From the sequence record PZ379549.1: a DNA stretch of 46,532 nt; one strand, given 5' to 3'. Every line of letters starts with the position of its first letter. Position 1 is the stretch's first letter. Origin of the DNA: a phage. A program made the translations under genes and the position numbers. Positions 1,980 to 32,647 of this stretch are shown piece by piece. The notes under the pieces were generated by a model. It saw only the letters and a list, made by a program, of their open reading frames with translations, made no database searches and was not told the DNA's origin.

Positions 1980-2381
1980 TTAGTCTAGACGAACATAAAA
2001 ACGAACCGGGATAAACCACCCAGACTTGGATTTGATAACGGGGTTAACAACTCCAGACTCATAAATGGTCCCGCTGTCAAGCATTGTACCATCAACGATA
2101 GATTCTGCCAATTTATTAGCGATTTGTCTGGGCCTGTCAATTCCAGTACCAGGACTGAAGAATACTGAAATTTGAACCATGCCTACGTAGTATTTGCACT
2201 TCCTGCTTAATCCGTAGGTTACGGTGTCAACCTCTGTATAGTCGTACTTAAGCCAGATTGATCCATCGGCAGGAGGAGTAAACTTACAGTTCTCCCAAGC
2301 GACTGGATATCTGACCGGAAATTCATTTACCAACAAATCGTTGACGAATTTCCTTGCTGCTAATGATAATTCATATTGCAC
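1980..2381 (-). CDS. putative tail terminator / neck protein
   Basis: 133-aa ORF between neck block and major tail protein; function inferred from position only. Confidence 0.35.
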   Translation of the reverse strand: MQYELSLAARKFVNDLLVNEFPVRYPVAWENCKFTPPADGSIWLKYDYTEVDTVTYGLSRKCKYYVGMVQISVFFSPGTGIDRPRQIANKLAESIVDGTMLDSGTIYESGVVNPVIKSKSGWFIPVRFYVRLD

Positions 2382-3927
2382 GACGTAGCCTCCTCTACAG
2401 CTTCCTGGAAATACCTGCCCAACCTTGCTTGCACCACGCCAAGAACGCCAGCCGGAGCCTGATTCGAAGCCCCATACTCAAGGTCAGCAGGCGTAATCAA
2501 GCCTGTTAGTTATGTAGATAACACTTTGTCGCTGGTGAATTAGCCACAGCTCGAGCTTGCCTTGCCAGATACCTTTTTGTATGCTCCACCTGTTTTGATC
2601 GTAATCATTCAGAGACTGAGCTGAGCTGGGGAGTTCGCTGTAATCTGCCAGTTAGCCTTAAACCTACCAGTATCAACAGGCGATAAATCCACGATGGCGT
2701 TAGCAGCCTTAATTACCGTGTCGGCAGACAACAATATCAGAGAAGTTATCATCAGCTCTATCAATCCAATCAGCAATAGCTATTCGTCAAAGGTAGCCAA
2801 CACCACCAATATTTCTAGCCATAGGTAGCCACCCTCCTTAGAATTGGTCTGTAAGCCAACTACTAGTTCCTGTTGGTTTGACTGGCCTCGGGTCGACTAC
2901 AGTGTAAGTTTCATCTTCAACTATAATCCTGATAGCCCTGCAAGATTGCGGACTTCAGACAGTGAAAATTCCACGCTTGTCACCAAACTGGATATATTCG
3001 CCATCAATATCTCTGCGTTTTAATCTCCCTCACCAAGCCCCTTGATTGAAATGCAGTTGCCGCCAGCTACAGGAACCTCAACGCCGTCAACGATTTCGAC
3101 ACCATCCTTTACCAGTATTCATCTCGTGAATGTACCATCTGCCATCACTAAAGATAGTTGATGCCCGTGCGCATTAATTGATTCTACTTGGGAGTAATTC
3201 ATTGGCAACCGCACTCACCGCCAGCAGCGGACGTAATCAAGCCAAATCCGCCGCCTTTCTTGCGCAGGAGATTCCTAGTAAAGTGCGGCCCCACGGCGTA
3301 GCTGATCAATGATGACCTTGAGTTTGCGAGGTGGATATCATAAGCTGATAGAAAATTCACCGCTCAGCGGAGTAACTTGCCACCTTCTATGGCCATATAT
3401 CATCCAGCGACTTCATTCTCGCCCTTAAGCGCGCCATCAAGAAAGGCATCATGTGCAGATGTGTATAGTCCGACAGCGCTTTATAAGCATCATGCACCAA
3501 ACTTACTGGTCGCAGATGTATAGACTTAGCTAACTCAAGCCATACGTCCAGCGATTCGTCATCTGGAATATTCTTAAGAGCAGGAACCAGCGACTTGCAT
3601 AAAGGCTAATGCTTGTATCGTTCATAAAACCTCCATACAATAAACGGACGCCGAAGCGCCCTGTTTGGTTATTTGTACTCGTTGACCAGTCTCAGCCTCG
3701 GCAGATGGTTTTCGGTTCTTTGCGCTTATATTCTTGCTAACAACTTCTTGCGACGATTTGTTTGGTTGCCTTGGTGTCACCCTCAACCTGGTGAGTTGAC
3801 CCTCTGCGATTAAACGCTTGAGCCCAGTCGCAAATTACCTCAACCTCGAATGAGTGTCACCAGGCAAATATTTCTCACCTTTGTAAACGATAATCGTGCA
3901 CGCTCCAGTGTGTTCTAAACGAATCAT
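2382..3927 (-). pseudogene. frame-disrupted block of head-tail connector/neck genes (at least 4 genes)
   Basis: No ORF >=60 aa on either strand over about 1.5 kb; good RBS+ATG starts at 3927 (AAGGAG) and 3625 (GGAGG, ATGA overlap with upstream stop) each run into stops within 15-30 codons while adjacent frames continue protein-like sequence. Confidence 0.45.
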
Positions 3928-3993
3928 TTATTGCTCTCCTTTTATTAATTGATGGTTGATTATAACCCAACAAATCCATTTAGGTACAGACGT

Positions 3994-4016
3994 AAAAAAG
4001 CCCTCCATAAGAGGGC
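3994..4016 (-). terminator. rho-independent terminator after major capsid gene
   Basis: Minus-strand RNA GCCCUC-UUAUG-GAGGGC followed by UUUUUU. Confidence 0.65.
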
Positions 4017-4098
4017 GATTTATTACGCGAAGGTGATGCCTTTGATTACAGCCATACAGTCAGCGGGCGATAAACAATCAATCCCGTCGCTTTTGAGG

Positions 4099-4977
4099 TT
4101 ACCGGGTAGCGTGAAATGCAGGTCCTTCGGCTGAGCCAGGTAGCACGTTCGTCACTTCTGGAATCTCAATACTCAGGTTGAGCGGATCCTTTTCAAACGC
4201 CAGTGCAGCTTTGCCACCAGCACCGTCGTAGTTATCCAGGAATTGCAGATAACGCAGAGTGATGCCGGAGTTATTGGTTGCAAACAACTGCGCGTAGCTG
4301 ATAGAGGTGTTCGGCACCAGTTCTTGCATCAGGCGGCGAGCGGAAGCAGGCAGCAGGATATCAGTCGCGGTGTGAGCACCATTGGTAGCTGTTTCGATAG
4401 CATCGATAAGCGCTGTGATATCAGTCATAGCAGCAGCCGCGGAGTTCCACGTACCAGCAACAACCTGGTTAACGTTCGGACGCATTGAATACGCCAGGAA
4501 TGCCGTGCGGTGCAGAGCCAGACCATACCAGTTTATCGAGCAGGTTGTCATGCGCTTCAAAAGCCAATGCCTGTTTACGAGCTGACAGTGACTGACCAGT
4601 TGCTGCGCCAGCTTTGATTTCGTCGGTGGAAATCAGGAACGCGTTACCAAAACGGAAAACTTTGCCTTGCTTCTCGGTCATGAACGCATCAACCAGCGGC
4701 AAGGTCATCAGAGTAATCAGCGATAATCTGAGCAATTACCAACACCATCAAACTCTGGATATTCGAAATACTTCGCGTGAGCCAGGAATTTCATTAGTTA
4801 CCGGGAAGATATTAACAACTGAGTTTTCTGCGATATTCTTTTTCGTAAGCGCGATGTCAGAGCTAGCGGTCAAGCTGGCTTAACGGTCCAGATACCAGCA
4901 GCATCAGCTTTATCTACACCCATTTGCTCAAGGTGAGCGGTGATTTTTGCTTGTTCTGCATCAAATTTAATGGCCAT
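4099..4977 (-). pseudogene. major capsid protein gene, interrupted by at least 3 frame changes
   Basis: ATG at 4977 (MAIKFDAEQAKITAHLEQMGVDKADAAGIWTVKPA then stop); capsid-like segments continue in other frames (ORFs 4469-4735 and 4099-4560); position between decoration gene and neck block. Confidence 0.55.
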
Positions 4978-11890: not shown

Positions 11891-11966
11891 TGGTGTTCCG
11901 CACTGGACTCGAACCAGTAACTAAGACTTAGGAGGTCTTTGCGTTATCCTGTTACGCCAGCAGAAC
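11891..11966 (-). tRNA. tRNA-Arg (anticodon CCU, reads AGG)
   Basis: Hand-folded 76-nt cloverleaf: acceptor GTTCTGC/GCGGAAC, D-arm GCGT-AACAGGATA-ACGC, anticodon arm AAGAC-CTCCTAA-GTCTT (U33, CCT, A37), variable AGTT, T-arm ACTGG-TTCGAGT-CCAGT, discriminator A, encoded CCA. Confidence 0.8.
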
Positions 11967-12543: not shown

Positions 12544-12775
12544 AAAGGCTATTCCCATTCTGATCATGGCCCACGCGCCCTCGTCGATAGCCCGCTATCC
12601 ACACAAACTTGTCTCGTGCGATTAGTCGTCGAATACCGGCCCCCACATCTTGAGTGATCAGCGCCGCCACTACCTTATCATCTTTCTTCTTTGCGCCAAG
12701 TTTGCCGTACTCTTCATTCAGCTTATCAGCCTGGCGCTTGACTGCGTTAAAGTATGCGTCGTTTAATCCGAACAT
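12536..12775 (-). CDS. hypothetical protein
   Basis: 79-aa ORF, start ATG overlaps upstream stop (TAATG). Confidence 0.35.
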   Translation of the reverse strand: MFGLNDAYFNAVKRQADKLNEEYGKLGAKKKDDKVVAALITQDVGAGIRRLIARDKFVWIAGYRRGRVGHDQNGNSLYE

Positions 12776-14335: not shown

Positions 14336-14482
14336 ACCGATTTCATCACGAAGAACATAACACTCAACACCCCCTCCAAGAACGTCCAGCTGAGATTTTG
14401 CATCTTCGTAACACTCATAAGCCCGAATATGCTTAACGCTGTTGAATTTTCCCGTATAGTATGTGTGAACGTAATAAATCAT
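14330..14482 (-). CDS. hypothetical small protein
   Basis: 50-aa ORF; stop TAG lies inside the box. Confidence 0.3.
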   Translation of the reverse strand: MIYYVHTYYTGKFNSVKHIRAYECYEDAKSQLDVLGGGVECYVLRDEIGE

Positions 14483-14712
14483 TTCTTTGTCGCCTTATCC
14501 CAGTTAGTGAGGTAGCCAGCATTCTGGATGCTTAGAGCTTCGTACTGGCGAGATGACTCGAAGTCTGATACGTCGAACTGCTGATTGTTGATTTGCGCGC
14601 TAGTCTCTTTTACGACACGCATCTGCTCAAAGGTGAGCGTAGAGTACATCGGCTTCATTATGATCGATTTAAGGATTGCTGCATCTTTCTCTGACAGGTT
14701 AATTGTAATCAT
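14479..14712 (-). CDS. hypothetical protein
   Basis: 77-aa ORF. Confidence 0.4.
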   Translation of the reverse strand: MITINLSEKDAAILKSIIMKPMYSTLTFEQMRVVKETSAQINNQQFDVSDFESSRQYEALSIQNAGYLTNWDKATKK

Positions 14713-14942
14713 TTCGTTTGTTCCAGGTAAGTTTTCATCTTGTTCAGTGAGTCTATTGCGTCATCAAGGTCAGTAATTACGTCCTTGTGGCCTCGCAAAC
14801 CCATGCATAGAAGCTTTTTAATTGCATGCTGACACGCCGGGTCTGTAACGTTGAACGCTGATAGCGTGCGATACACATCAACAATAGCACGCTCGCCATT
14901 AAGCCCGATAATCTCTCTTTCATATTTGCTCCTTTCCATCAC
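14709..14942 (-). CDS. hypothetical protein
   Basis: 77-aa ORF downstream of box unit. Confidence 0.4.
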   Translation of the reverse strand: MMERSKYEREIIGLNGERAIVDVYRTLSAFNVTDPACQHAIKKLLCMGLRGHKDVITDLDDAIDSLNKMKTYLEQTK

Positions 14943-15017
14943 ATCCTCTTTTGCTTTGCTTCAATAAGGCCACTATATCAAATGGCCTTGCGGAAGGTTT
15001 AGCAATTCGTGCTATTC
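14943..15017 (-). promoter_or_regulatory. box-hairpin-(-10)-leader unit
   Basis: Box 14998-15017 abutting stop of 15016-15201, hairpin AAGGCCA..TGGCCTT, TATAGT. Confidence 0.4.
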
Positions 15018-15201
15018 AAAACTTAACATCAATTATGACTTCAACCATCTCCTGCCCAAGCCGGTAGGAGTCGCCCCAAAGAAGTAGTCCCATAAACTCA
15101 TCCTTACTAAAAGTGTTGGCATTTACAGTTCTAAGATAGCCACGATGGATAACAGTATCGCCAATCTTAACTTCGCTCTTATGTACCATTTTAGTTTTCA
15201 T
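15016..15201 (-). CDS. hypothetical protein
   Basis: 61-aa ORF. Confidence 0.4.
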   Translation of the reverse strand: MKTKMVHKSEVKIGDTVIHRGYLRTVNANTFSKDEFMGLLLWGDSYRLGQEMVEVIIDVKF

Positions 15202-15256
15202 GCTGTTTCTCCAGTTGTCTTATTGAGGCACCCCGCGAGATGCCTTGTAAGATAAC

Positions 15257-15445
15257 TCAGTAGCAGGTAGCCAGGAAGTCGGCGATACCTTTTGAGGTTG
15301 CTTCCGGCATACTACGTACTGCAACATCGTAACCAGCCTCAACCTTTGCAATCGCTGACTCTTCGTTGTATCCGAACATTGTCAGGATGGTGATTACGTT
15401 TTCTTTATTCAGGACTTTAAGTTCTTTAGTGATGCGCTTAGCCAT
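15257..15445 (-). CDS. hypothetical protein
   Basis: ORF 15257-15517 trimmed to ATG 15445 (MAKRITKEL...) which follows the conserved leader. Confidence 0.35.
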   Translation of the reverse strand: MAKRITKELKVLNKENVITILTMFGYNEESAIAKVEAGYDVAVRSMPEATSKGIADFLATCY

Positions 15446-15530
15446 TTTCGTTTTCCTTTGTGCCTCTCGTTTCGATGAGATAATTATGCCATCCATGGCA
15501 TTATATGCGTTAGGCAAAAAGTGCTATTTC
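15446..15530 (-). promoter_or_regulatory. box-hairpin-(-10)-leader unit
   Basis: Variant box 15510-15530, hairpin GCCATGGATGGC, ATAATTAT, CTCATCGAAACGAG. Confidence 0.4.
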
Positions 15531-15634
15531 CATTCAGTAGTAATTTAGCTTTCCGATATAAATCCATAGCCACCCCAACCTCATCCTCATCCTCACTGTA
15601 CCGCGGATGGTATGGTAGTAGACTACCATACCCA

Positions 15635-16156
15635 CTATTTAGTCTCCTTAATCATTTCTTGGTATGCGTTAATCATTGATACTGCACCCTTAAGTTCATC
15701 ACCTTCAAGACCAGCGACGCTTGGTGATAGTTTCAACAATCGAGCCTTGAACCTTTCAATGGTAGCCCCCTCCTTCTCTTGCTCTGCTTTGCTTCTTGAG
15801 CCGGATTTTACAGCGCCAGGAACCAGGCTAAGTGATGCGCAGTATGTCTCACTCTCGCCCTCAAAGTCGGTAAAACTAAGTGAGAACCTTGAGCGCACGT
15901 CAGCCGCCTTAATCTCAGGCATTCGGCTTACGGTGTTTGAAACGTATGACGCTTTTAGTTTTGGCATGTGGTATTCACCACCAGGTAGAACCTCCTCACC
16001 ACTTAGCGATACGAACGTCTCACGACTCATGCCGAAGTATTGACGAGCAATCATGGTCACAGGGACTGTGCACACTTTGTCTTCTGACTTGAGCGCCTGA
16101 CTCGCCATGTATCGAATGATTTCACCCAAACTTACTGCTTCTTTATGTTCTGACAT
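15635..16156 (-). CDS. hypothetical protein (first gene of leftward unit)
   Basis: 173-aa ORF adjacent to AT-rich control region. Confidence 0.45.
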   Translation of the reverse strand: MSEHKEAVSLGEIIRYMASQALKSEDKVCTVPVTMIARQYFGMSRETFVSLSGEEVLPGGEYHMPKLKASYVSNTVSRMPEIKAADVRSRFSLSFTDFEGESETYCASLSLVPGAVKSGSRSKAEQEKEGATIERFKARLLKLSPSVAGLEGDELKGAVSMINAYQEMIKETK

Positions 16157-16277
16157 ATTCGTTACTCCTGATTGGTTGCTCTTCGTTAAGATGAAACCAT
16201 GGTATCATGAATATACGCGTTATCAAGTGTTATGTTGTGTTTATATCTGCATTGGTTACGCTTTTTGACCTCTCAGC

Positions 16278-16291
16278 CCAGCTATAGCTGG
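16278..16291. promoter_or_regulatory. perfect 14-bp palindrome CCAGCTATAGCTGG
   Basis: Read directly; core AGCTATAGCT recurs at 35217-35226. Confidence 0.4.
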
Positions 16292-16407
16292 TGTAATTAC
16301 CCTGTGTAAGATTTTACGCGGATTCGCCGGGGGTATGCATATGTATCTATATAGATAAAATTAGTAGTTTTCATAGAAAAACTATCGACCCATCCATACG
16401 ACCAATC

Positions 16408-16495
16408 TACACCATATACATACATATATATAATAATAATAATAATATAGTAAAAGGTTGATATATATAGATATTATTATGTAACCATTGCGTAA
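16408..16495. repeat. AT-rich control module copy A, includes (TAA)5 microsatellite at 16431-16447
   Basis: About 85 percent identical to 35357-35439 by eye. Confidence 0.6.
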
Positions 16496-16642
16496 TCTAG
16501 CGTGGTAGGCGTGTATGATTCTTCGGAAGCGCACCTCATATACACACCATAACTTCGATAACGTGTATATCCAAATTGGCTCAGCAAGAATCAAAATCAA
16601 CTTGTATGGTAGTCCATCCACCATTCATTCACCCCACATCGA

Positions 16643-16743
16643 TCATTGCAAATTCTGCAACAATCAAAAACATCATTGCATTCGATGCAATATTGCTATA
16701 TGTGCAATAATGATGATGAATCATTGCAATAGCTGCAACAATC
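16643..16743. promoter_or_regulatory. operator/iteron-like array of TTGCAA-family sites
   Basis: 23-bp direct repeats TCATTGCAA-N4-TGCAACAATC at 16643-16665 and 16721-16743 flanking inverted repeat ATTGCAT-tcg-ATGCAAT at 16675-16691. Confidence 0.4.
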
Positions 16744-16755
16744 TATAAATCCAAC

Positions 16756-16830
16756 GAATAGCACTTTTTGCTAATGCACAATCATTAGTAAGTTGCTACT
16801 ATGTATTCATCGAAACGGTGCTGGACTCTG
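16756..16830 (+). promoter_or_regulatory. box-(-10)-leader unit at head of rightward small-ORF cluster
   Basis: Variant box 16756-16776, then TATGTATT, CATCGAAACGG. Confidence 0.35.
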
Positions 16831-18700: not shown

Positions 18701-18760
18701 TAATGCATTATAAGCGGCTATTGATATAATGGCCGCTCAGAAACAATGCGGAGAGAAGTA
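18686..18760 (+). promoter_or_regulatory. box-hairpin-(-10) unit
   Basis: Variant box 18686-18703, hairpin GCGGC..GCCGC enclosing TATAAT. Confidence 0.4.
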
Positions 18761-20023
18761 ATGTTTGATTTCAATGAAGATAAACTATCTGTTGAGCAAG
18801 TTATGGCGATCGCTGCCAATGACAACCTACCACCGCTTCGCGTGGCTATTAATGCCAATGGCTATCGACAGTCTCAATCGTTCTGGAAAGCACCTGTCGA
18901 GATTGATACAGGTAATGATAAGTATCCAGTAATCTCACTCGGTAATGATATTGATGTTGTTGGTAAGCTATCGGCTAATATCGCTCGCTCGGTTCAGTTC
19001 CCTGAGTCGTCAGCTTACATGCACTTTCTTGGTTGTGTTTCTGCTGCAATGCTTGGGCGTTTTACTGTCGAGTATCATGGAACCCAACAGCCAACATCTT
19101 TGTACGTGGTAACAAGTCAGCCGCCTTCAACTGGTAAATCAGCCATTAACTCGCTATCAATTGCGCCGATGATTGCTGAGACTGAGCGGTTGAATGAAGT
19201 ACGTAAACGTGATCGAAAAAAGATTATGGCTAAACTGTCCGCTCTGGCTAAAGAGATGAAGCAGGAGAAATCACCTTCTGAAATGGCTTCACTTTTTGAG
19301 GAGAAGGAGGATTTAGAGGAGAAGCTCGAGAAGCTATGCGATATAGTATTCCCTGTCTCCGATACTACTCCGGAAGGTCTTGCGCGAATCAACAATCGCC
19401 AGGGTAATTTTGCGGTAATCTCTGATGAGGCTACTAGCGTCAACTCACTGTTAGGCATGACTTACGGTGATGGCTCGAAGAAAACGAACAGCGAGCTCGT
19501 GCTGAAAGCATGGGATGCAGGTAATGTGTCAATTGCCCGTGCGAACGCAGAAAATAACATGAGCTTTGTGGCTATGGGATGCATCTCCGTAATTGCTCAG
19601 GATGAAACAATCAATGCCATTATGAATGCTGGTGCGCGTGGTATTGGTGTATCTGAGCGTTTCCTTCTGGTGCGTGAAAAATCATTTCTTGGCGACCGTG
19701 TATTTGTTGATGAAAATGGTGATTCAACCTATGAGGCTATTGATGGCGGCCTGAAAGCAGACTATTTCCGTCTTGTTCATGAGATTATGAATGAAGTTGA
19801 AGTGAAACTTACTGTAAGCGCGTCATCAATGCGTTACCTTAACCGCGCTCGTCAAGAGATGGAGCCTCATCTTGGTGATGGTGGCAAGTATTCTCACACA
19901 ATGTTGCGCGGTGCTCTTGGTAAGTTTGATAAGCAAGCAATCCGCATCGCTTCTGTTCTGCACGTAATTCGTAACTGGTTCTCACCAGCCGGATCCAGCC
20001 CTCAAGAAGTCAAGAGAGATTGA
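18761..20023 (+). CDS. P-loop NTPase, DUF3987-like (replication-associated?)
   Basis: Walker A-like SQPPSTGKS and Walker B-like FAVISDEATS; ATG 18761 with GGAGAGAAG RBS (track start 18746). Confidence 0.45.
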   Translation: MFDFNEDKLSVEQVMAIAANDNLPPLRVAINANGYRQSQSFWKAPVEIDTGNDKYPVISLGNDIDVVGKLSANIARSVQFPESSAYMHFLGCVSAAMLGRFTVEYHGTQQPTSLYVVTSQPPSTGKSAINSLSIAPMIAETERLNEVRKRDRKKIMAKLSALAKEMKQEKSPSEMASLFEEKEDLEEKLEKLCDIVFPVSDTTPEGLARINNRQGNFAVISDEATSVNSLLGMTYGDGSKKTNSELVLKAWDAGNVSIARANAENNMSFVAMGCISVIAQDETINAIMNAGARGIGVSERFLLVREKSFLGDRVFVDENGDSTYEAIDGGLKADYFRLVHEIMNEVEVKLTVSASSMRYLNRARQEMEPHLGDGGKYSHTMLRGALGKFDKQAIRIASVLHVIRNWFSPAGSSPQEVKRD

Positions 20024-20033
20024 ACTGGATACA

Positions 20034-20246
20034 ATGCAGGAAGCGGTTATGATTTTCAACGAACTAAGCAAGACTTATTTATCATCCGCTAGTGCTGCTG
20101 GTCATGCTGGTGACAATGCCGAGATGAACAAGCTGGTTGATATCCTGATTAAGCAGGGCAAGAATGGTAAAGGTGTTGTTGGTGTTCGCTCGTTGTATGA
20201 GGCTGCACGCAAGGTTAAACCTTTTGAAGCTCAGGCTGGAATGTAA
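20034..20246 (+). CDS. hypothetical protein
   Basis: 70-aa ORF. Confidence 0.4.
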   Translation: MQEAVMIFNELSKTYLSSASAAGHAGDNAEMNKLVDILIKQGKNGKGVVGVRSLYEAARKVKPFEAQAGM

Positions 20247-20347
20247 TGACTCGCATTAAGGACCACTTGATTCCTATGCTTGATGAGAAAAACTACACAT
20301 GCCTGATTGGTGATAAAATTTACATTAATCCACGATTGCTGGGGTAA
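20246..20347 (+). CDS. hypothetical small protein
   Basis: 33-aa ORF between two overlapping-stop junctions. Confidence 0.25.
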   Translation: MTRIKDHLIPMLDEKNYTCLIGDKIYINPRLLG

Positions 20348-20712: not shown

Positions 20713-21084
20713 GTTTTTCCTGAATATCATTAAGAGCAGAATGATGATGACGCAAAACATGATTCCACTCCCAATCCACGGGATTGCAGACGAATCATTG
20801 TTGGTGATTTCAATCTTCTCAGCCGTGATTGTTGATGCCTTGATTGAGTTATCAGAAGTCTTTTTACCGCTTGAACTATCAAGAGTGTCAACCTTAGAGT
20901 TCTTCACTTCAGCCTTTGCGCTGGAACTTGAATCAACCTTATTAGTTATCCCCACTCCAACCTTGTTATTCTCCGCACCTGCTTGAGCGCTAATCTCTGG
21001 CCTACTACCAATCAACCCGGTCAGCGCAGATGTTGCCGAGCAACCAGAAAGTATAATTACCGCAGCAATTAACGCAGCCTTCAT
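20698..21084 (-). CDS. unimolecular spanin (u-spanin)
   Basis: N-terminal lipoprotein signal with lipobox LSGC, Ser-rich periplasmic part, C-terminal transmembrane helix; last gene of lysis cassette. Confidence 0.55.
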   Translation of the reverse strand: MKAALIAAVIILSGCSATSALTGLIGSRPEISAQAGAENNKVGVGITNKVDSSSSAKAEVKNSKVDTLDSSSGKKTSDNSIKASTITAEKIEITNNDSSAIPWIGSGIMFCVIIILLLMIFRKNKKAP

Positions 21085-21567
21085 TTACCCACCCCACTTA
21101 AGCATAATTTAATCTCCTCGTTGCGCCTGTTGACGAGGCCTTTAACAACTTTTAGCTTGCCATTTACTCGAGCTTTATTCCAGGAGGCGAGAGCATTACA
21201 ACCCTGCTTCAATCTTGCCCTGATTAATCAGCCTTACTGCCGTTGACTTCCTCATTGCAGCGCCACCAACGTTGTAGCTAAAGCTGATTAACGCCGCCCT
21301 TGTCTGTGGAGAGATTGGGTAAGTTACTGCATCCTGCACATACTTTCCATGAATCTGGATGTGTTTCTCCAGTAAGTTCCTGCACTCCCTTGCACTGTAC
21401 TTTTTACCCCACACCACATCAGGACCAGTGATACCTGAACAAACCGTAGGAATGCCTGCAATGTCCATGTAAGGCTTGTATTCCACACCTTCTACTAGCT
21501 CAATAATCGGCGCTGCGATGTATATTGCCACAGCCGTCGCTGCACTAATTACCAGCTTCTGCTTCAT
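21081..21567 (-). CDS. SAR endolysin (phage lysozyme), apparent frame change near 21196-21215
   Basis: N-terminal SAR-like hydrophobic segment, catalytic region LVEGVEYKPYMDIAGIPTVCSGITG; C-terminal 34 codons (WNKARVNGKLKVVKGLVNRRNEEIKLCLSGVGK) lie in another frame ending at TGA overlapping spanin ATG. Confidence 0.6.
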
Positions 21568-24714: not shown

Positions 24715-24957
24715 CTAAACCTTCGTTATCTTAAATTTGAATCCCTGTTCTTTCAGGAACTCATTCGTGTTTATCGTGACGCCAGGTTTAACACTGACAT
24801 ACTTGCGCGGCCTTTCATCCATGTACGTAAACTTACCGTTGAAGATGACACTGATATCTTTTATATCGAAGTACTTAGATATCATCTTAATGTCGTCCTG
24901 AATGCCAGCCTCTGCGCAGTGGGCCCAGACTGCGGCCCGTCCTGTTTCAACTATCAT
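24715..24957 (-). CDS. hypothetical protein
   Basis: 80-aa ORF. Confidence 0.35.
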   Translation of the reverse strand: MIVETGRAAVWAHCAEAGIQDDIKMISKYFDIKDISVIFNGKFTYMDERPRKYVSVKPGVTINTNEFLKEQGFKFKITKV

Positions 24958-25083
24958 AAGCCGTATGCCAATTTCAGGTATTCACGCGCACACATCCAAT
25001 GACTCATTCTGATTGAAACTCAACTGCATCAACTCAGTATAAATGTTGGGCAATCCTAAACATCTCCTTATCTACGATTTTCA

Positions 25084-25305
25084 TTATTCAAAATCCTCCG
25101 GGCAATCTTTTTTCATTTCCGCAATGTCTGCAACCATGCGTTCGCGCCATGTTTCGATGTCCGTTCGCAAGTAATCTTCTTCAAAGCTGTAATCAAGGCA
25201 TCCTGCTAAAAACCATGAGTCACCTTTATAACCAGCATTGTGTAGCTCCTGAACCCCCATTGCCTGAAATAGTTCCCATTGTTTGTCAAATGTTAAAATT
25301 GCCAT
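25084..25305 (-). CDS. hypothetical protein
   Basis: 73-aa acidic ORF. Confidence 0.4.
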   Translation of the reverse strand: MAILTFDKQWELFQAMGVQELHNAGYKGDSWFLAGCLDYSFEEDYLRTDIETWRERMVADIAEMKKDCPEDFE

Positions 25306-25505: not shown

Positions 25506-25590
25506 TTTCTTTCTCTCTTTGTGTGTTTCGTTTCGATGAGTTGATAATACACCAACTCACCAATTCGTCTTTAGCAATTCGTGCTATTTT
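25506..25590 (-). promoter_or_regulatory. box-(-10)-leader unit
   Basis: Box 25570-25590 overlapping upstream stop TAG, TATTAT, CTCATCGAAACGAAACACAC. Confidence 0.4.
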
Positions 25591-26007
25591 CTTATCATCT
25601 CTGCGAATGCCGCAAGAAAACCCTCTCTTCCATAAGCCACCGCTGCGAAACCGCCTGATTCCCTTACGCTTTTTAGGAATGACTTTTGCTCATTGCTAAC
25701 TGGGCTTGCTTGCGTTTTACCAGCCCTCTTTAACTCTATGGCGCCAAATGGATAACCGCCACGCAATGACTCAGGTATCAGAAATAAGCAGTCTGACACA
25801 CCTTTGAGAAGCCCCTTGGCTTGGTCTTTTCTTGCTTGACCAATGCTCTTTTTATTGATTCGTTAACTCGTGTGCCAGTAAACAATCTGCGGATAGTTGA
25901 TATTTCACCCAATCAGAGCAGAAGATTTGTTCATCGTCTTCCTTTGGGCATGACTTCACCGGTCCGCCATAGAACTCGAGGTAATCACCTTTGTCTGTGA
26001 TTTTCAT
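25584..26007 (-). pseudogene. VRR-NUC-type nuclease gene with about 3 frame changes
   Basis: ATG 26007 with GGAGG RBS gives EDDEQIFCSDWVKYQ; continuation YPQIVYWHT, NESIKRALVKQEKTKPRGFSK and GVSDCLFLIPESLRGGYPFGAIELKRAG...NEQKSFL lie in three other frames within about 150 nt. Confidence 0.45.
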
Positions 26008-26008
26008 A

Positions 26009-26263
26009 TCAATCCTCCATCGTAAATGATTTGTTGGCGATAATATCTTGCGACTTCTGATTCTTGCGGTGCGTAATCCTTAGCGGCGCACGGAAAAGAT
26101 GTGCATTTGTCATAATCATTTTAGCATTACGCAATCTGCCAATCCTAAAAGCCTCAGTCCTGTTCTCGATGTGAGTTGAGCAAAACGCCTTCCATTTGAC
26201 AGAACAAACACGATGGTCTGACTCCGGGAAGAATGTTTCATAAGCTCGGAATCTTGTCACCAC
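26009..26263 (-). CDS. hypothetical ORF (possible frame-shifted helicase tail or separate small gene)
   Basis: 84-aa ORF overlapping helicase 3' end. Confidence 0.25.
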   Translation of the reverse strand: MVTRFRAYETFFPESDHRVCSVKWKAFCSTHIENRTEAFRIGRLRNAKMIMTNAHLFRAPLRITHRKNQKSQDIIANKSFTMED

Positions 26264-28006
26264 TGTGAGCCATTACCTCATATGAAGCAACGATCCCTGA
26301 CTGGTTCTTTGTTAACCCAATCTTGAAGTCATAAACTCGCAACCAGTCCCCCTTACGATACATTTTTCCTGATAACTTAGCATTCGGGTCTATGAGCATC
26401 TCACCACAGCATCTGCAATTCTTAGCTGCAATATCATTCTTCTCACCGCATCCTTTCTTAATGATAGCTTTGGTCTGTGGGTCCGCTATATCTTCACACA
26501 GTCTAAACTGAAAGAAGTGCTCACAGCGCTTCCAGTCAATTACGTTATTGCAGCGCCTGGCTAATTGAGAGTTCACATAAGAGCATGCCGGACAGATTCT
26601 TGGCTTATCACCACGCTTTCTTGCTGACCTAAATTTCTGGTCTTGTACCTCTTCTATAATTGGGTCGAAGTAAAGTTCAGCCATATCATCAAGCGTTCCA
26701 GCAAAATCAAGAACAACATGGTCATCTTTTACCATTCCAGCTTCTTTGTGCTTCTTCTTAAGGATACGCATACCACGACCAAGCAACTGAATGAGTAGAG
26801 TAATGCTACCAACCTTCCTCAGGATAATGCTTGTATCCCACGGGGGGCAGTTTACGCCAGTTGTGAGGCAACCAATCTGAAATATGAACTTATATTCTCC
26901 GTTGGCTGCCTTCTCAAGTATCTCTCTACGCTTCTTCTCACCAGTGGAGTTGGTAACTATCGCCCAAGTAACACCTTCTAGGAAGTGCGGCTGCCGCCTC
27001 CATCGCAATGCTGTTTGCCAGCGCAAGTTACCAATGCAGCATTCCTTGTTTCCATAAACTTAGCAGCAAATCCCATTATCTTTTGTGTCATCGTTTGGTT
27101 TTCGTGAATCTTTGCAGCCATCGCATCCATTTCTTTCTTGCTGAAGTCCTTAACCCCATCACTTCCATCAGGAGTGAACTCACTAAGGTCGTAGCCCAAA
27201 TCACCAACTTCACCGTAGACAGTAGGAACAACGAACCCCAAGTCAACAAGGTAGCTGGTTGGCACTTGCATTACAGTTTTGCGCCAGAATCCACGGACAT
27301 TTGGGTTACTAACTACAATGTGGTCGTTGTTACGGTACGGGCTGCCAGTCAAACCGAAGATGCGTAGTTCGCGACCATACTTCTCTTTGCAGCGTCTCTT
27401 CATCTCAGTAATGATTAGCGTGTACTGCGCACGACCAGTTCCGAGCAATCCGGTATTCACTCCATCCTTGAAAACCATCTCACCCTTCTTCGTGCTCATC
27501 TGCTCGAATGTTTCCTCGTTCTCTTCAGCTTCTACGATATCCATATGGTCAACCATATGACATTCATCTATCGCAATAACGGCAGGAACATAGTCACCAA
27601 GGCCCTTAAACAAGCCGTTAGCAGCCGTGCCCTCACTAGCCACTATGGTTGGGTAGTAAACTGATTTAACGTTAAGGCCAGCGCAATAGACGCTATTACG
27701 GATGCCGAAGTTACGAAGCTCTTCAGCGTTCTGGCTGATAATTTCTGACTGGCGAGAAAGCACCATGTAAGGAAGCCCAAGCTGTTCCATGCGCTTTCCA
27801 ATCATGGCAAGAATAATTGTCTTACCAGCAGATACAGACAGGTCTGCGATGAATGGGGCCTCGTACTTTCCAATAGCCTTCCCAATTGCATCAAATGTCA
27901 CACACTGGAATGGGTAAGGAGTGATTTCTCCAAACTGGTAATCTCTCTGAATCTGCTTAATCTTCTCTTGATCGAAGTTGGCTACTAAGCGCTCTACTGG
28001 AAGCAT
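26238..28006 (-). CDS. SF2 DEAH-box helicase with C-terminal Cys-rich region, one frame change near 26978-27026
   Basis: N-part ORF 26978-28006 has Walker A SAGKT and DECH; C-part ORF 26238-27026 has motif VI QLLGRGMR; the two overlap in different frames. Confidence 0.65.
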
Positions 28007-28102: not shown

Positions 28103-28492
28103 ATGTGTGAAATTGACAAGCGAACTATCAACGGCAATAACGGAACCATCCGCACGCAAGACAAGAAACAGCGCAAACGACCGTCAGGCTACTACGTATT
28201 GAAAGATGAAGTAAAGGCTGGGCTAAGAGCTCGTCTGGAGATGGTTCTTGACTTCTACGGCACGAAGGCCAATATCGCCAAGCAGTTAAATGTATCTCAC
28301 CAGACTGTAGAACAATGGTTTGATCGCGGTATGATTTCGGCTCGAGGCGCCCAGCGAGCACATAATGCGTACAAGAGAAATAAGGGAGGGTTCCGAGCTA
28401 CTTTCTGCCGACCAGACCTGCAATTTGACGGTAACGGTAAGCCTCTGACGCTTACGATGCAAGAAGCGCCACATGCTACGCGTGGTTACTGA
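28103..28492 (+). CDS. HTH DNA-binding protein (candidate regulator)
   Basis: HTH-like GTKANIAKQLNVSHQTVEQWF; first gene of rightward unit; a +1 frame continues 36 codons past the stop. Confidence 0.45.
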   Translation: MCEIDKRTINGNNGTIRTQDKKQRKRPSGYYVLKDEVKAGLRARLEMVLDFYGTKANIAKQLNVSHQTVEQWFDRGMISARGAQRAHNAYKRNKGGFRATFCRPDLQFDGNGKPLTLTMQEAPHATRGY

Positions 28493-28585
28493 GGCTGAAC
28501 TAGCAACTAAAGCCACCTTGTCGACTCGTGGCGCAAGAATAAGATTGCCAACGAAGCCGCACGAAAAGCTAAAGAGTAAATAATT

Positions 28586-28630: not shown

Positions 28631-29110
28631 ATGAACTGGCATGATTATTTTTACTATGTAGATGGCAAATTGCATTGGAAGATTAGCACTGCAAGACGTG
28701 TTAAGGTTGGCGATGAGTGCAACTCACTATCTACATCTGGCTATTACAAAGTGTCTGTTAATGGCTTTAGGACTTATGTACATAGAGTTGTGTGGGAGAT
28801 GTTTAATGGAGAACTTCAAAATGGCGACTACATTGATCATATAAACCATAACAAATTAGATAACAGAATAGAAAACCTAAGAGTAACAACAAATCAAGGT
28901 AACTCAAGAAATTGCAAGCTTAGCGTTTTATCAACAACTGGTTATTGTGGAGTGGCAAAGCTAAATCACGGAAAATTTAAGGCTCACATCAAGGTTGACG
29001 GCAAGCAGCTACACCTTGGGAACTTCGATACTCCAGAGCGGGCGTATAAAGTAAGAATTGAAGCAGAGGGAAAATACAACTTTCACGAAAATCACGGGTT
29101 AAGCAAATGA
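28631..29110 (+). CDS. HNH homing endonuclease with AP2-like domain (paralog of 100-585)
   Basis: Same architecture: DHINHNKLDNRIENLRVTTNQGN then GVAKLNHGKFKAHIKVDGKQLHLGNF. Confidence 0.7.
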   Translation: MNWHDYFYYVDGKLHWKISTARRVKVGDECNSLSTSGYYKVSVNGFRTYVHRVVWEMFNGELQNGDYIDHINHNKLDNRIENLRVTTNQGNSRNCKLSVLSTTGYCGVAKLNHGKFKAHIKVDGKQLHLGNFDTPERAYKVRIEAEGKYNFHENHGLSK

Positions 29111-30115: not shown

Positions 30116-32647
30116 ATGGCAATTTATGACTTAGGAACAGCATCACTAGCCTCAAATGGCGAGGTTACTGGCGTAGGTACTACATGGAAAGCACCTCTTA
30201 CACTGATTCGTGTAGGTGCTACTATCATTTTCAAAACCAGCCCTCTGAAAATTTACACCATCTCTGAAATCATCAGCGATACTCAGGTTAATGTTTATAA
30301 TCCAAGTTCTGAAACTGTTCCCGCTGGTACTGGTTACGCAATTCTTGCTCATGATGGAATTACTGTTCAGGGGTTGGCGCAGGATGTTGCGGAAACATTG
30401 CGTTACTACCAGTCAAAAGAGACTTCTATTGAAAGTCTACTGCAATTTATCGGGCAAGATACTTTCGATTGGCCTCGCTTCGAGCAGCTTGCAACCCAAT
30501 CAACCACTGGGGCTGCTGAGGCGCTAGCTAGTCAGATCGCTGCCGCTGAAAGTGCGAGTGCAGCCGCCTCAGCAAGAGACGCTACGACAGAGGCACGCGA
30601 TGCTACTATTAGCGCAATTAATAATGCTGGTGACGCCGGAACATTAGCAACGCTTGCATCTTACAATATAGCAAACTCAGTAGCAATTAGAGCTACCTCA
30701 TTTGATTGGCAAACTTACGCATTTAAAAACGGCTCAAAAGTTTTAGTGTCAAAGTCAGCAATGGTAAACACTCCTTCTAGTGTAAATGACCTTATATCAA
30801 GTGCCGGTGCTAGTCTTGATTATGTAATTGAGTGCAAGATTGTTACAGCAGGAACTGGAGAGTTGCTTTTATCATCAGCAACAACATCAAATGCAAACTA
30901 CTATAACTTATCTATTAGATACTCAGTGTCAAACTCAGTAAGAACGTTTTATACAAGGGAGATTTTATCAATTCCATCAGGAGGTATAAGTGGAGGAGCA
31001 AGCTCATCAAGGGTTAGGGATTTGATTGATGTTTATTCAAAATCCGAGACGTTTCAAAAATCATTGAATCTTTCAGACATTGCAGATAAGTCCGTGGCAA
31101 GAACCAACCTTGATGTTTACTCAAAGGGTGAGGTGTCATCAATTTTAAATACAGATTCAAAAAGCACATCAAGCTATAGCGGCTCAATATCTTCAGCAAT
31201 AAAAGCCGCTGGCGATGGCGGGTCGGTAGTTATAAGTCCGGGAACTTATGAGAGTAATAACTACTCCTTTGCTGGCAGGAACATATCAGGCTCTGGATAT
31301 AATACCGTAATAAGTGTTAAACCTTTTGAAACCGGACTCACCTCAACGCTATCGGTTCCTCACTGGAGGCAAAAGCATTTATCGGATTTGCAGTTTACAG
31401 GTACTGCAATACAAGGTAATAACGGCTTTCAATTCCCGAATGACCCTTATGCTGGCAGGATTGTGATGGATAGGCTGTACTTCAGCGACATTGATGTTGG
31501 TATACGTAAAAACGCTGGCAACATTGGAAATACCTACAGAAACGTAAGTGTTAGAAATGCGAATTACGGGTATAGAGCAAAAGCTCATGACAAAATGCAT
31601 ATAGGAGCGGACACTTTATACGGATACCACTCAGATACAATCTCTCAATATTCAGTAATGCTAGATGCGACAAGCACAAGTAGCGCAACGAACCCTGGTG
31701 CTGGAGGAATTGGTGGGTGGTGGATTAGGGATTCAATAATGGAGGCCTCTGCTGGCGGCGGTATAAGGTTAAAGAATAAACCTGGAGATTGCCCAACATC
31801 ACCTTGCGGATTGTCTAACGTATGGTTTGAAGCGATAGCAACTGGTGGGGCAATTAACGTAGGTGAGGGAGCTGAACTCCCAAGGGTTTTGAAGCTCATC
31901 GATACGTCCGTTTTCTTTGCTGAGCATTCTTATATTAATAACATTGAGTTATCAAATTCAAACCTTGTAACTTATGGGTGCAGGTTTGATAACGCTGATG
32001 GGCACCAAAGTTTCTCTCTTGATTCGAACAGTATTATTTTTGCTAAGGATGCATACCTGAATGGATCTTCAACATCAAACGTTATAGTTGAGTCGCTGGT
32101 ATCACAGACAGCCAAGATAACTGGCACTTCAAACCTATCTGTTAGAGGATATGTTACTAAGGGTCGAGTTTTTAATCCCGATTCCGGAACTGTTTTAGTC
32201 AGGAGGCCTTTTGGTACTGGTGGGAACAACTTTGGTGGAACAGGGTCGGCAAGTGAAGGTTCTGATACAAGGGGTATACACTCGCAATCATCTGGATACT
32301 ACGAATTGGCTGGTGCGGCTCAGTACGAATTGATAAATGGTGGCTTTAATATAACTTCCGGCAAATGGTATGCTTGGGGTATTTCTGCAAACAGGATTCA
32401 AGGCGGTGCTGATGGTATTATAAACATTTTTGGTAGCGCATCATTAGGAACTGTATTCACAGAAGCTGGTAAGTGGGTTCATACATTTGGCGTTGGTAAG
32501 GCTTCGGTTTCTGGCGTTGCAAACCTTAACATTAACCTCAATGGATTAACTGGTATGGTATTAAGCCTTGCTGATTATTTTGTTGTAAAATTTGATAATC
32601 AAAGGGACGCCTTGATATTTGCAAACTCAAGAGTTTCTCTTGCATAA
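30116..32647 (+). CDS. tail fiber / tailspike with probable beta-helix (depolymerase-like) domain
   Basis: 843-aa ORF, Ser/Thr/Gly/Asn-rich; central region resembles right-handed beta-helix carbohydrate-active domains. Confidence 0.6.
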   Translation: MAIYDLGTASLASNGEVTGVGTTWKAPLTLIRVGATIIFKTSPLKIYTISEIISDTQVNVYNPSSETVPAGTGYAILAHDGITVQGLAQDVAETLRYYQSKETSIESLLQFIGQDTFDWPRFEQLATQSTTGAAEALASQIAAAESASAAASARDATTEARDATISAINNAGDAGTLATLASYNIANSVAIRATSFDWQTYAFKNGSKVLVSKSAMVNTPSSVNDLISSAGASLDYVIECKIVTAGTGELLLSSATTSNANYYNLSIRYSVSNSVRTFYTREILSIPSGGISGGASSSRVRDLIDVYSKSETFQKSLNLSDIADKSVARTNLDVYSKGEVSSILNTDSKSTSSYSGSISSAIKAAGDGGSVVISPGTYESNNYSFAGRNISGSGYNTVISVKPFETGLTSTLSVPHWRQKHLSDLQFTGTAIQGNNGFQFPNDPYAGRIVMDRLYFSDIDVGIRKNAGNIGNTYRNVSVRNANYGYRAKAHDKMHIGADTLYGYHSDTISQYSVMLDATSTSSATNPGAGGIGGWWIRDSIMEASAGGGIRLKNKPGDCPTSPCGLSNVWFEAIATGGAINVGEGAELPRVLKLIDTSVFFAEHSYINNIELSNSNLVTYGCRFDNADGHQSFSLDSNSIIFAKDAYLNGSSTSNVIVESLVSQTAKITGTSNLSVRGYVTKGRVFNPDSGTVLVRRPFGTGGNNFGGTGSASEGSDTRGIHSQSSGYYELAGAAQYELINGGFNITSGKWYAWGISANRIQGGADGIINIFGSASLGTVFTEAGKWVHTFGVGKASVSGVANLNINLNGLTGMVLSLADYFVVKFDNQRDALIFANSRVSLA

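Follow-up and report, generated by a model that had tools for sequence, protein, structure and literature searches.

The three frame changes that split the VRR-NUC nuclease gene of this phage are most likely (with a probability of roughly 0.8) an artefact of consensus building or polishing, in which two alleles have been kept in tandem, and not a property of the phage. We take the lesions to be sequence errors rather than the marks of a pseudogene because insertion-only lesions private to this genome also break other genes, because the inserted bases carry a two-allele signature and because the nuclease gene itself is conserved. In other words, biology is very probably not what the frameshift cluster reflects. 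The extra base is typically the alternative allele of an adjacent alignment column, and the removal of the insertions restores the genes.

The genome and its relatives

The window, that is, the whole stretch of 46,532 bp that was analysed, is a T1-like siphophage of E. coli (Drexlerviridae, Braunvirinae). When its end and its start are rejoined, the beginning of the tape-measure gene emerges ('GGAGGAAAAATGGCAACTAACGAA'), as in phage ES. Since the junction 46532/1 rebuilds this gene start, the window represents a complete, circularly closed genome. In the phage collection, Escherichia phages ES (OR466728) and AN_ECEAS (PP944860) come closest, with ~92-96% identity over most of the length. Exact look-ups of the fragment ORFs of the window and of several of its intact proteins gave no match in the public collections, but a 377-aa protein led to two Logan contigs, one of which (L006, run DRR232302) has an intact VRR-NUC gene. 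For the nuclease gene, alignments were made with ES, AN_ECEAS, ACG-M12, CY1, phiA2-1 and L006, and for the genome as a whole indels were compared pairwise between the window and seven relatives. An indel was counted as private if it was agreed upon by every covering relative, with a minimum of two (from two to six panel genomes per site).

Several features of the records are worth pointing out in their own right. The window has a single tRNA-Arg (anticodon CCT), at 11891-11966 on the minus strand; in ACG-M12 a tRNA-Arg is annotated between the early-gene block and the terminase genes. Two HNH_3 homing-endonuclease-like ORFs are found on the plus strand, at 100-585 and 28631-29110 (Pfam 84 and 65 bits, respectively), the former between the tape-measure and chaperone genes, where phage ES has only ~47 nt. 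The product names in the ES record OR466728 look misassigned, and its labels are not to be trusted: the helicase is called 'putative single-stranded DNA binding protein', the rtp56 homologue 'tail assembly protein', and small early genes 'DNA helicase' or 'capsid maturation protease'. The records PP134917.1 and PQ314493.1 ('Pseudomonas phage PsgS01F' and E. coli phage vB_EcoS_UALMA_PCEc3) are both 44,679 bp long and have identical match statistics; the Pseudomonas host label of PsgS01F, a T1-like coliphage, looks doubtful.

The nuclease gene and its three insertions

The coordinates of the nuclease gene, of its parts and of the other affected genes are collected in Table 1. The initial annotation had taken the gene for a VRR-NUC-like nuclease and had named a profile search with a frame-corrected translation as a way to check it. 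The corrected protein of 139 aa passes this check, scoring 33.4 bits against Pfam PF08774 (VRR_NUC) with a gathering cut-off of 23.8, close to the 34.7 bits of the ES orthologue, and it matches phrog_824 with E = 3.7e-45. As written, the gene has 424 nt; minus the four extra bases it has 420 nt, and in ES, AN_ECEAS, ACG-M12, CY1, phiA2-1 and L006 the homologous gene is uninterrupted at 420 nt (139 aa). The VRR-NUC domain of the window is thus spread over three frames as written, and it occupies one uninterrupted reading frame only when the four bases are taken out.

Table 1. Coordinates of the nuclease gene, its insertions and the other genes hit in the window
Feature	Position	Strand	Basis or remarks
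VRR-NUC (PD-(D/E)xK) nuclease gene, Rtp gp54 / ACG-M12 gp27 homologue	25584..26007	-	Pfam PF08774, phrog_824, alignments
GGAGG ribosome-binding site	26014..26018	-	sequence; 6 nt upstream of nuclease ATG 26007-26005
N-terminal ORF fragment, 51 aa	25852..26007	-	ends at frame-0 TAA 25854-25852
C-terminal ORF fragment, 71 aa, from internal GTG, with catalytic core	25584..25799	-	Pfam VRR_NUC 25.7 bits alone
Catalytic motif GVSD (Asp71), IELK (Glu90, Lys92), NEQK downstream	25728..25793	-	translations, corrected-protein numbering
First frame change, extra T (gene strand)	25900	-	TA[T]C = TAC (ES, ACG-M12, Logan contig) + TAT (CY1, phiA2-1)
Second frame change, extra G (gene strand)	25867	-	ACG A[G]TT = ACG ATT (ES type) + ACA GTT (CY1/phiA2-1 type)
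Third frame change, extra TC (gene strand)	25857..25858	-	[TC]AAT = AAT (ES type) + TCA (CY1/phiA2-1 type)
SF2 helicase, split into ORFs of 342, 262 and 84 aa	26009..28006	-	private +1 insertions at 27002, 26980, 26252
DUF3987 replication protein, frame-split	18746-20344	+	insertions at 20004, 20242
Endolysin, frame-split	21084-21567	-	insertion at 21206
157-aa protein, frame-split	28103-28576	+	insertions at 28454, 28508, 28525
41-aa rtp58 homologue, frame-split	24957-25084	-	insertions at 24998-25044
Head-gene block: major capsid, decoration and neck genes shredded	2486-4871		~40 private 1-2 nt insertions

DNA alignments with the relatives bear out the three frame changes of the initial annotation and reduce them to exactly three insertion events (+T, +G and +TC, four bases together), which span 44 nt rather than the about 150 nt that it had given. 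Its start codon preceded by GGAGG is found in the sequence, and its acidic motif at the N-terminus corresponds to the KEDDEQ helix within residues 1-36 of the 51-aa ORF. These residues are authentic and the rest of that ORF is out of frame; tblastn aligns query residues 1-37 in one frame. Each segment had also been assigned a frame of its own. The gene is indeed split over three frames, but the segment 'NYPQIVYWHT' and the C-terminal segment share one, the order along the gene being 0, +1, +2, +1. The C-terminal frame closes at TAG 25586-25584, and the third insertion event supplies the first base of the TAA stop of the N-terminal ORF.

In all three events, a CY1/phiA2-1-type allele has been stacked onto an ES-type backbone. 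Across the gene, the window has zero private substitutions relative to the ES/Logan consensus and, beyond the insertions, its single difference from ES is a substitution private to ES. Roughly 45 positions differ between the ES-type and CY1-type genes, and three patches of these are stacked. Lesion-bearing 30-mers and 24-mers were absent from viral and metagenome contigs; viral contigs lacked an intact control 23-mer as well, so these negatives carry little weight. An exact-DNA contig scan likewise gave no match to the helicase patch specific to the window lineage.

The gene stands directly downstream of the SF2 helicase gene, a pair seen in Drexlerviridae, and this gene order is common to ES, ACG-M12, CY1, phiA2-1 and L006. 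The two genes are tightly coupled, since the helicase stop (TGA 26011-26009) sits between the GGAGG and the nuclease ATG, which lies 1 nt past the stop. The same arrangement of ribosome-binding site, stop and ATG is present in ES, ACG-M12 and CY1.

The Asp ... Glu-x-Lys motif of the restriction-endonuclease-like fold lies within the ORF 25799..25584. Among solved structures, the top phmmer match is psNUC (4QBL). The match is weak (E = 0.11); in its alignment IELK corresponds to IEIK column for column, and GVSD and GYPD are found close together in one segment, although shifted against each other by one column. The stand-alone VRR-NUC proteins psNUC, stNUC and saNUC form dimers, are similar to Holliday junction resolvases and cleave four-way junctions (Pennell et al. 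2014, PMC4103454). By analogy, the phage nuclease is probably a structure-selective endonuclease that works as a dimer and depends on Mg, and it probably cuts four-way or branched DNA, removing recombination and replication intermediates ahead of packaging. With tblastn, a homologue was found in 1255 phage records, 1203 of which match at least 80% of the protein at one single place.

Private insertions across the genome

The lesions of the nuclease gene belong to a genome-wide pattern. Private net indels amount to 63 insertions of 1-6 nt and two deletions (binomial P = 1e-16). By length, 50 of the insertions are of 1 nt and 11 of 2 nt, with one of 3 nt and one of 6 nt. The excess of insertions is seen against every panel genome: the window has 150 insertions and 45 deletions relative to ES, 187 and 64 relative to CY1, 138 and 42 relative to IMM-001, 29 and two relative to L006, and 10 and two relative to L007. 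In a three-way alignment of ~9.2 kb, the window lineage shows 14 private insertion events, zero deletions and 104 private substitutions, against at most three indels and 386 substitutions for ES (Fisher P = 2.6e-7). These ratios, 14:104 versus 3:386, mark the indel rate of the window lineage as abnormal and beyond what chance would give.

About 40 of the 63 private insertions fall into the head-gene block, roughly one per 60 nt. Small clusters are found at 615-791, 12626-12651, 14472-16714, about 20003-20240, 25030-25044, 25857-25900 (the nuclease gene), about 26979 and 28454-28525. Further single events, at 16777, 21206, 24496, 24998, 25004, 26252 and 27002, come from the three-way and pairwise comparisons. 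The local cluster of indels that the initial annotation had recognised outside the capsid block is one of a set spread over the genome. Where divergence from the nearest relative exceeds 15%, bins have ~10 times the insertion density of those with <2% divergence. The correlation between density and divergence is only moderate (Spearman 0.23), and insertions are absent from long regions with ~8% divergence from ES (for example, 36-46 kb). As to local context, 46 of the 57 single-base insertions equal neither flanking base, which makes them unlike polymerase slippage or homopolymer miscalls.

Genes split by these insertions were found by mapping the proteins of AN_ECEAS and ACG-M12 onto the window (Table 1). 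The prohead protease gene is also split across frames, and there is no ORF of 70 aa or more within 2381-4099. Once the insertions are deleted, single-frame, full-length proteins are obtained for the helicase (1-664), VRR-NUC (1-139), the endolysin (1-161) and DUF3987 (1-527), the protease and small genes are restored too, and the identity of the major capsid protein rises from 48% to 80%. Private substitutions at third codon positions around the 20004 insertion change their phase along with it; because the phase follows the insertion, selection must have acted on the uninterrupted frame. Some of the broken genes are probably essential, and a phage whose helicase, endolysin, DUF3987, protease and capsid genes were all broken probably could not propagate.

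The helicase gene differs among the relatives in another way. In ES, AN_ECEAS and L006 it is interrupted by 1,139 nt of extra sequence that contain an ORF for a LAGLIDADG_2 endonuclease (L006:1700-2839; ES 30817-31956; corresponding to about 27561 of the window). This insertion, which may be an intron or a free-standing homing endonuclease, divides the helicase into ORFs of 269 and 557 aa, and the window, CY1 and ACG-M12 do not have it. An Rfam search of this insertion in the relatives gave no group I intron match.

Two alleles in tandem

For 42 of the 57 single-base insertions, the extra base is a relative's alternative allele at an adjacent column, against 16.3 expected (P<1e-5); the expectation comes from a local random-insertion null, and the alleles were taken from a seven-sequence panel. 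Outside the capsid block, the match is found for 17 of 20 single-base insertions (5.0 expected, P<1e-5), and the insertions of the capsid block bear the same two-allele signature as those of the nuclease gene. Two of the helicase events, at 27002 and 26980, are stacked likewise: GA[T]G equals GAG plus GAT of CY1, and CC[T]A equals CCA plus CCT of ACG-M12. The remaining 15 of the 57 have no matching allele in the panel. We also considered a fixed order of the stacked alleles relative to the plus strand, which would have suggested an algorithm with a direction; this was dropped, as the seven resolvable cases split 4:3.

An artefact of consensus building or polishing is the most economical account of this pattern. 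Where two alleles were available at a site, the consensus probably wrote both bases in tandem rather than one: a mismatch would have been split into an insertion and a deletion, of which the insertion alone was retained. A mixed phage population could have supplied the two alleles, as could a related template that guided or polished the assembly; as for the exact software or laboratory step behind the insertions, we can only infer it. Each stacking event would add one or two bases and leave insertion-only errors, which would gather wherever the two sources diverge and would strike genes regardless of their importance. An artefact of this kind explains why the errors are insertions only and fall outside homopolymers, why they bunch in locally variable stretches and why important genes are not spared. 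Counting against it are the 15 unmatched insertions, the diverged regions that are free of insertions and the moderate link with divergence. Furthermore, most sites at which the ES-type and CY1-type alleles differ are not stacked, so that the model requires either that the second source was different in a few places only or that the caller went wrong at some sites and not at others.

Alternative explanations

The excess might instead consist of random insertion errors that come from noisy reads or low-coverage stretches and have survived polishing, with no second allele involved. Random insertions of single-molecule reads are expected to be insertion-only and to lie outside homopolymers, as is the case here, and the patchy distribution along the genome and the 15 insertions without a panel allele would fit as well. 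Nonetheless, we consider this unlikely: matches to an adjacent allele would be expected for ~29% of the insertions and are observed for 74%, and all three events of the nuclease gene reproduce CY1/phiA2-1 alleles. A still less probable reading, which the initial annotation implied, is that the mutations are real and the VRR-NUC gene is a truly inactivated pseudogene, tolerated because the nuclease is dispensable. Phages can lose small accessory nucleases, and as written the sequence does encode no more than 51 aa at the N-terminus and, unlinked to them, the 71-aa core. However, dispensability does not account for the lesions, as identical ones occur in the helicase, endolysin, capsid, protease and DUF3987 genes, which a viable phage probably could not carry all at once. 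Nor does the nuclease appear freely dispensable, given that its homologue is kept at full length and in a single piece in 1203 of 1255 phage records. A decaying gene should moreover show a mixed spectrum of substitutions, deletions and slippage in a genome where lesions are confined to dispensable genes. What is seen are 63 insertions versus two deletions and, in the nuclease gene, three indel events with zero private substitutions, the insertions lying outside slippage-prone contexts and duplicating foreign alleles.

If the insertions were nevertheless real, a defective, heavily mutated genome might be present in the population, packaged and propagated through complementation by a co-infecting intact relative. 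The allele signature, which implies a second related genome in the sample, and the assembly of the molecule as a closed circle are in line with this idea, which we find very improbable all the same: mutational processes that turn a mismatch into a tandem of its two alleles are not known, a count of at least 63 insertions versus two deletions does not resemble a spectrum of decay, and the remaining sequence has normal patterns of purifying selection. Just as improbable is an undescribed, recombination-linked process that keeps in tandem both alleles of a heteroduplex mismatch between two co-infecting T1-like phages; were it true, defective genomes would be persisting through complementation. 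Programmed recoding, in which ribosomal frameshifting or transcriptional slippage would yield one protein, finds its sole support in the homologous coding sequence that continues in the shifted frames. It would require three shifts (+1, +1 and +2) within 44 nt, with no slippery run or homopolymer at 25900, 25867 or 25858 and with a TAA stop in the path. The shifts are absent from all six relatives, and we rejected programmed frameshifting, which is effectively refuted, for the lack of both slippery sites and conservation.

Implications and comparison with known systems

If the tandem-allele artefact is accepted, the main value of the observation is that of a quality flag: the genome sequence would contain at least 63 spurious insertions of 1-6 nt, nearly all of 1-2 nt. 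Split genes, pseudogenes and indel clusters in this genome, including those of the capsid block, helicase, endolysin and DUF3987, should not be read as biology until it has been re-polished. The two-alleles-in-tandem signature is also a simple reference-based means of spotting such assembly errors when there are no reads to consult. As for the VRR-NUC gene beneath the lesions, it is a conserved and already known part of the replication and recombination modules of T1-like phages.

Consensus and polishing artefacts are known from mixed or reference-guided assemblies, in which a mismatch becomes an insertion plus a deletion and the insertion alone is kept. The window shares with them the insertion-only excess, the allele of an adjacent column, the clustering in locally divergent stretches and the absence of a bias by gene importance; it differs in that only a subset of the variable sites is affected.

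The gene itself is an ordinary, already known stand-alone viral VRR-NUC nuclease of T1-like phages. Its counterparts (Rtp gp54, ACG-M12 gp27 YP_006987870, CY1 WDS61348 and ES WNO47617) occupy the same place after the SF2 helicase, and the window protein equals them in Pfam family and in corrected length (139 aa), with the coupled stop and start shared. After correction, its amino-acid identity is 99% to AN_ECEAS and 91% to ACG-M12, and the gene differs from those of the T1-like relatives only by the four extra bases private to the window. Like psNUC (4QBL), stNUC (4QBO) and saNUC (4QBN), the protein has a single PD-(D/E)xK domain with the D...ExK motif, although its sequence similarity to psNUC is marginal.
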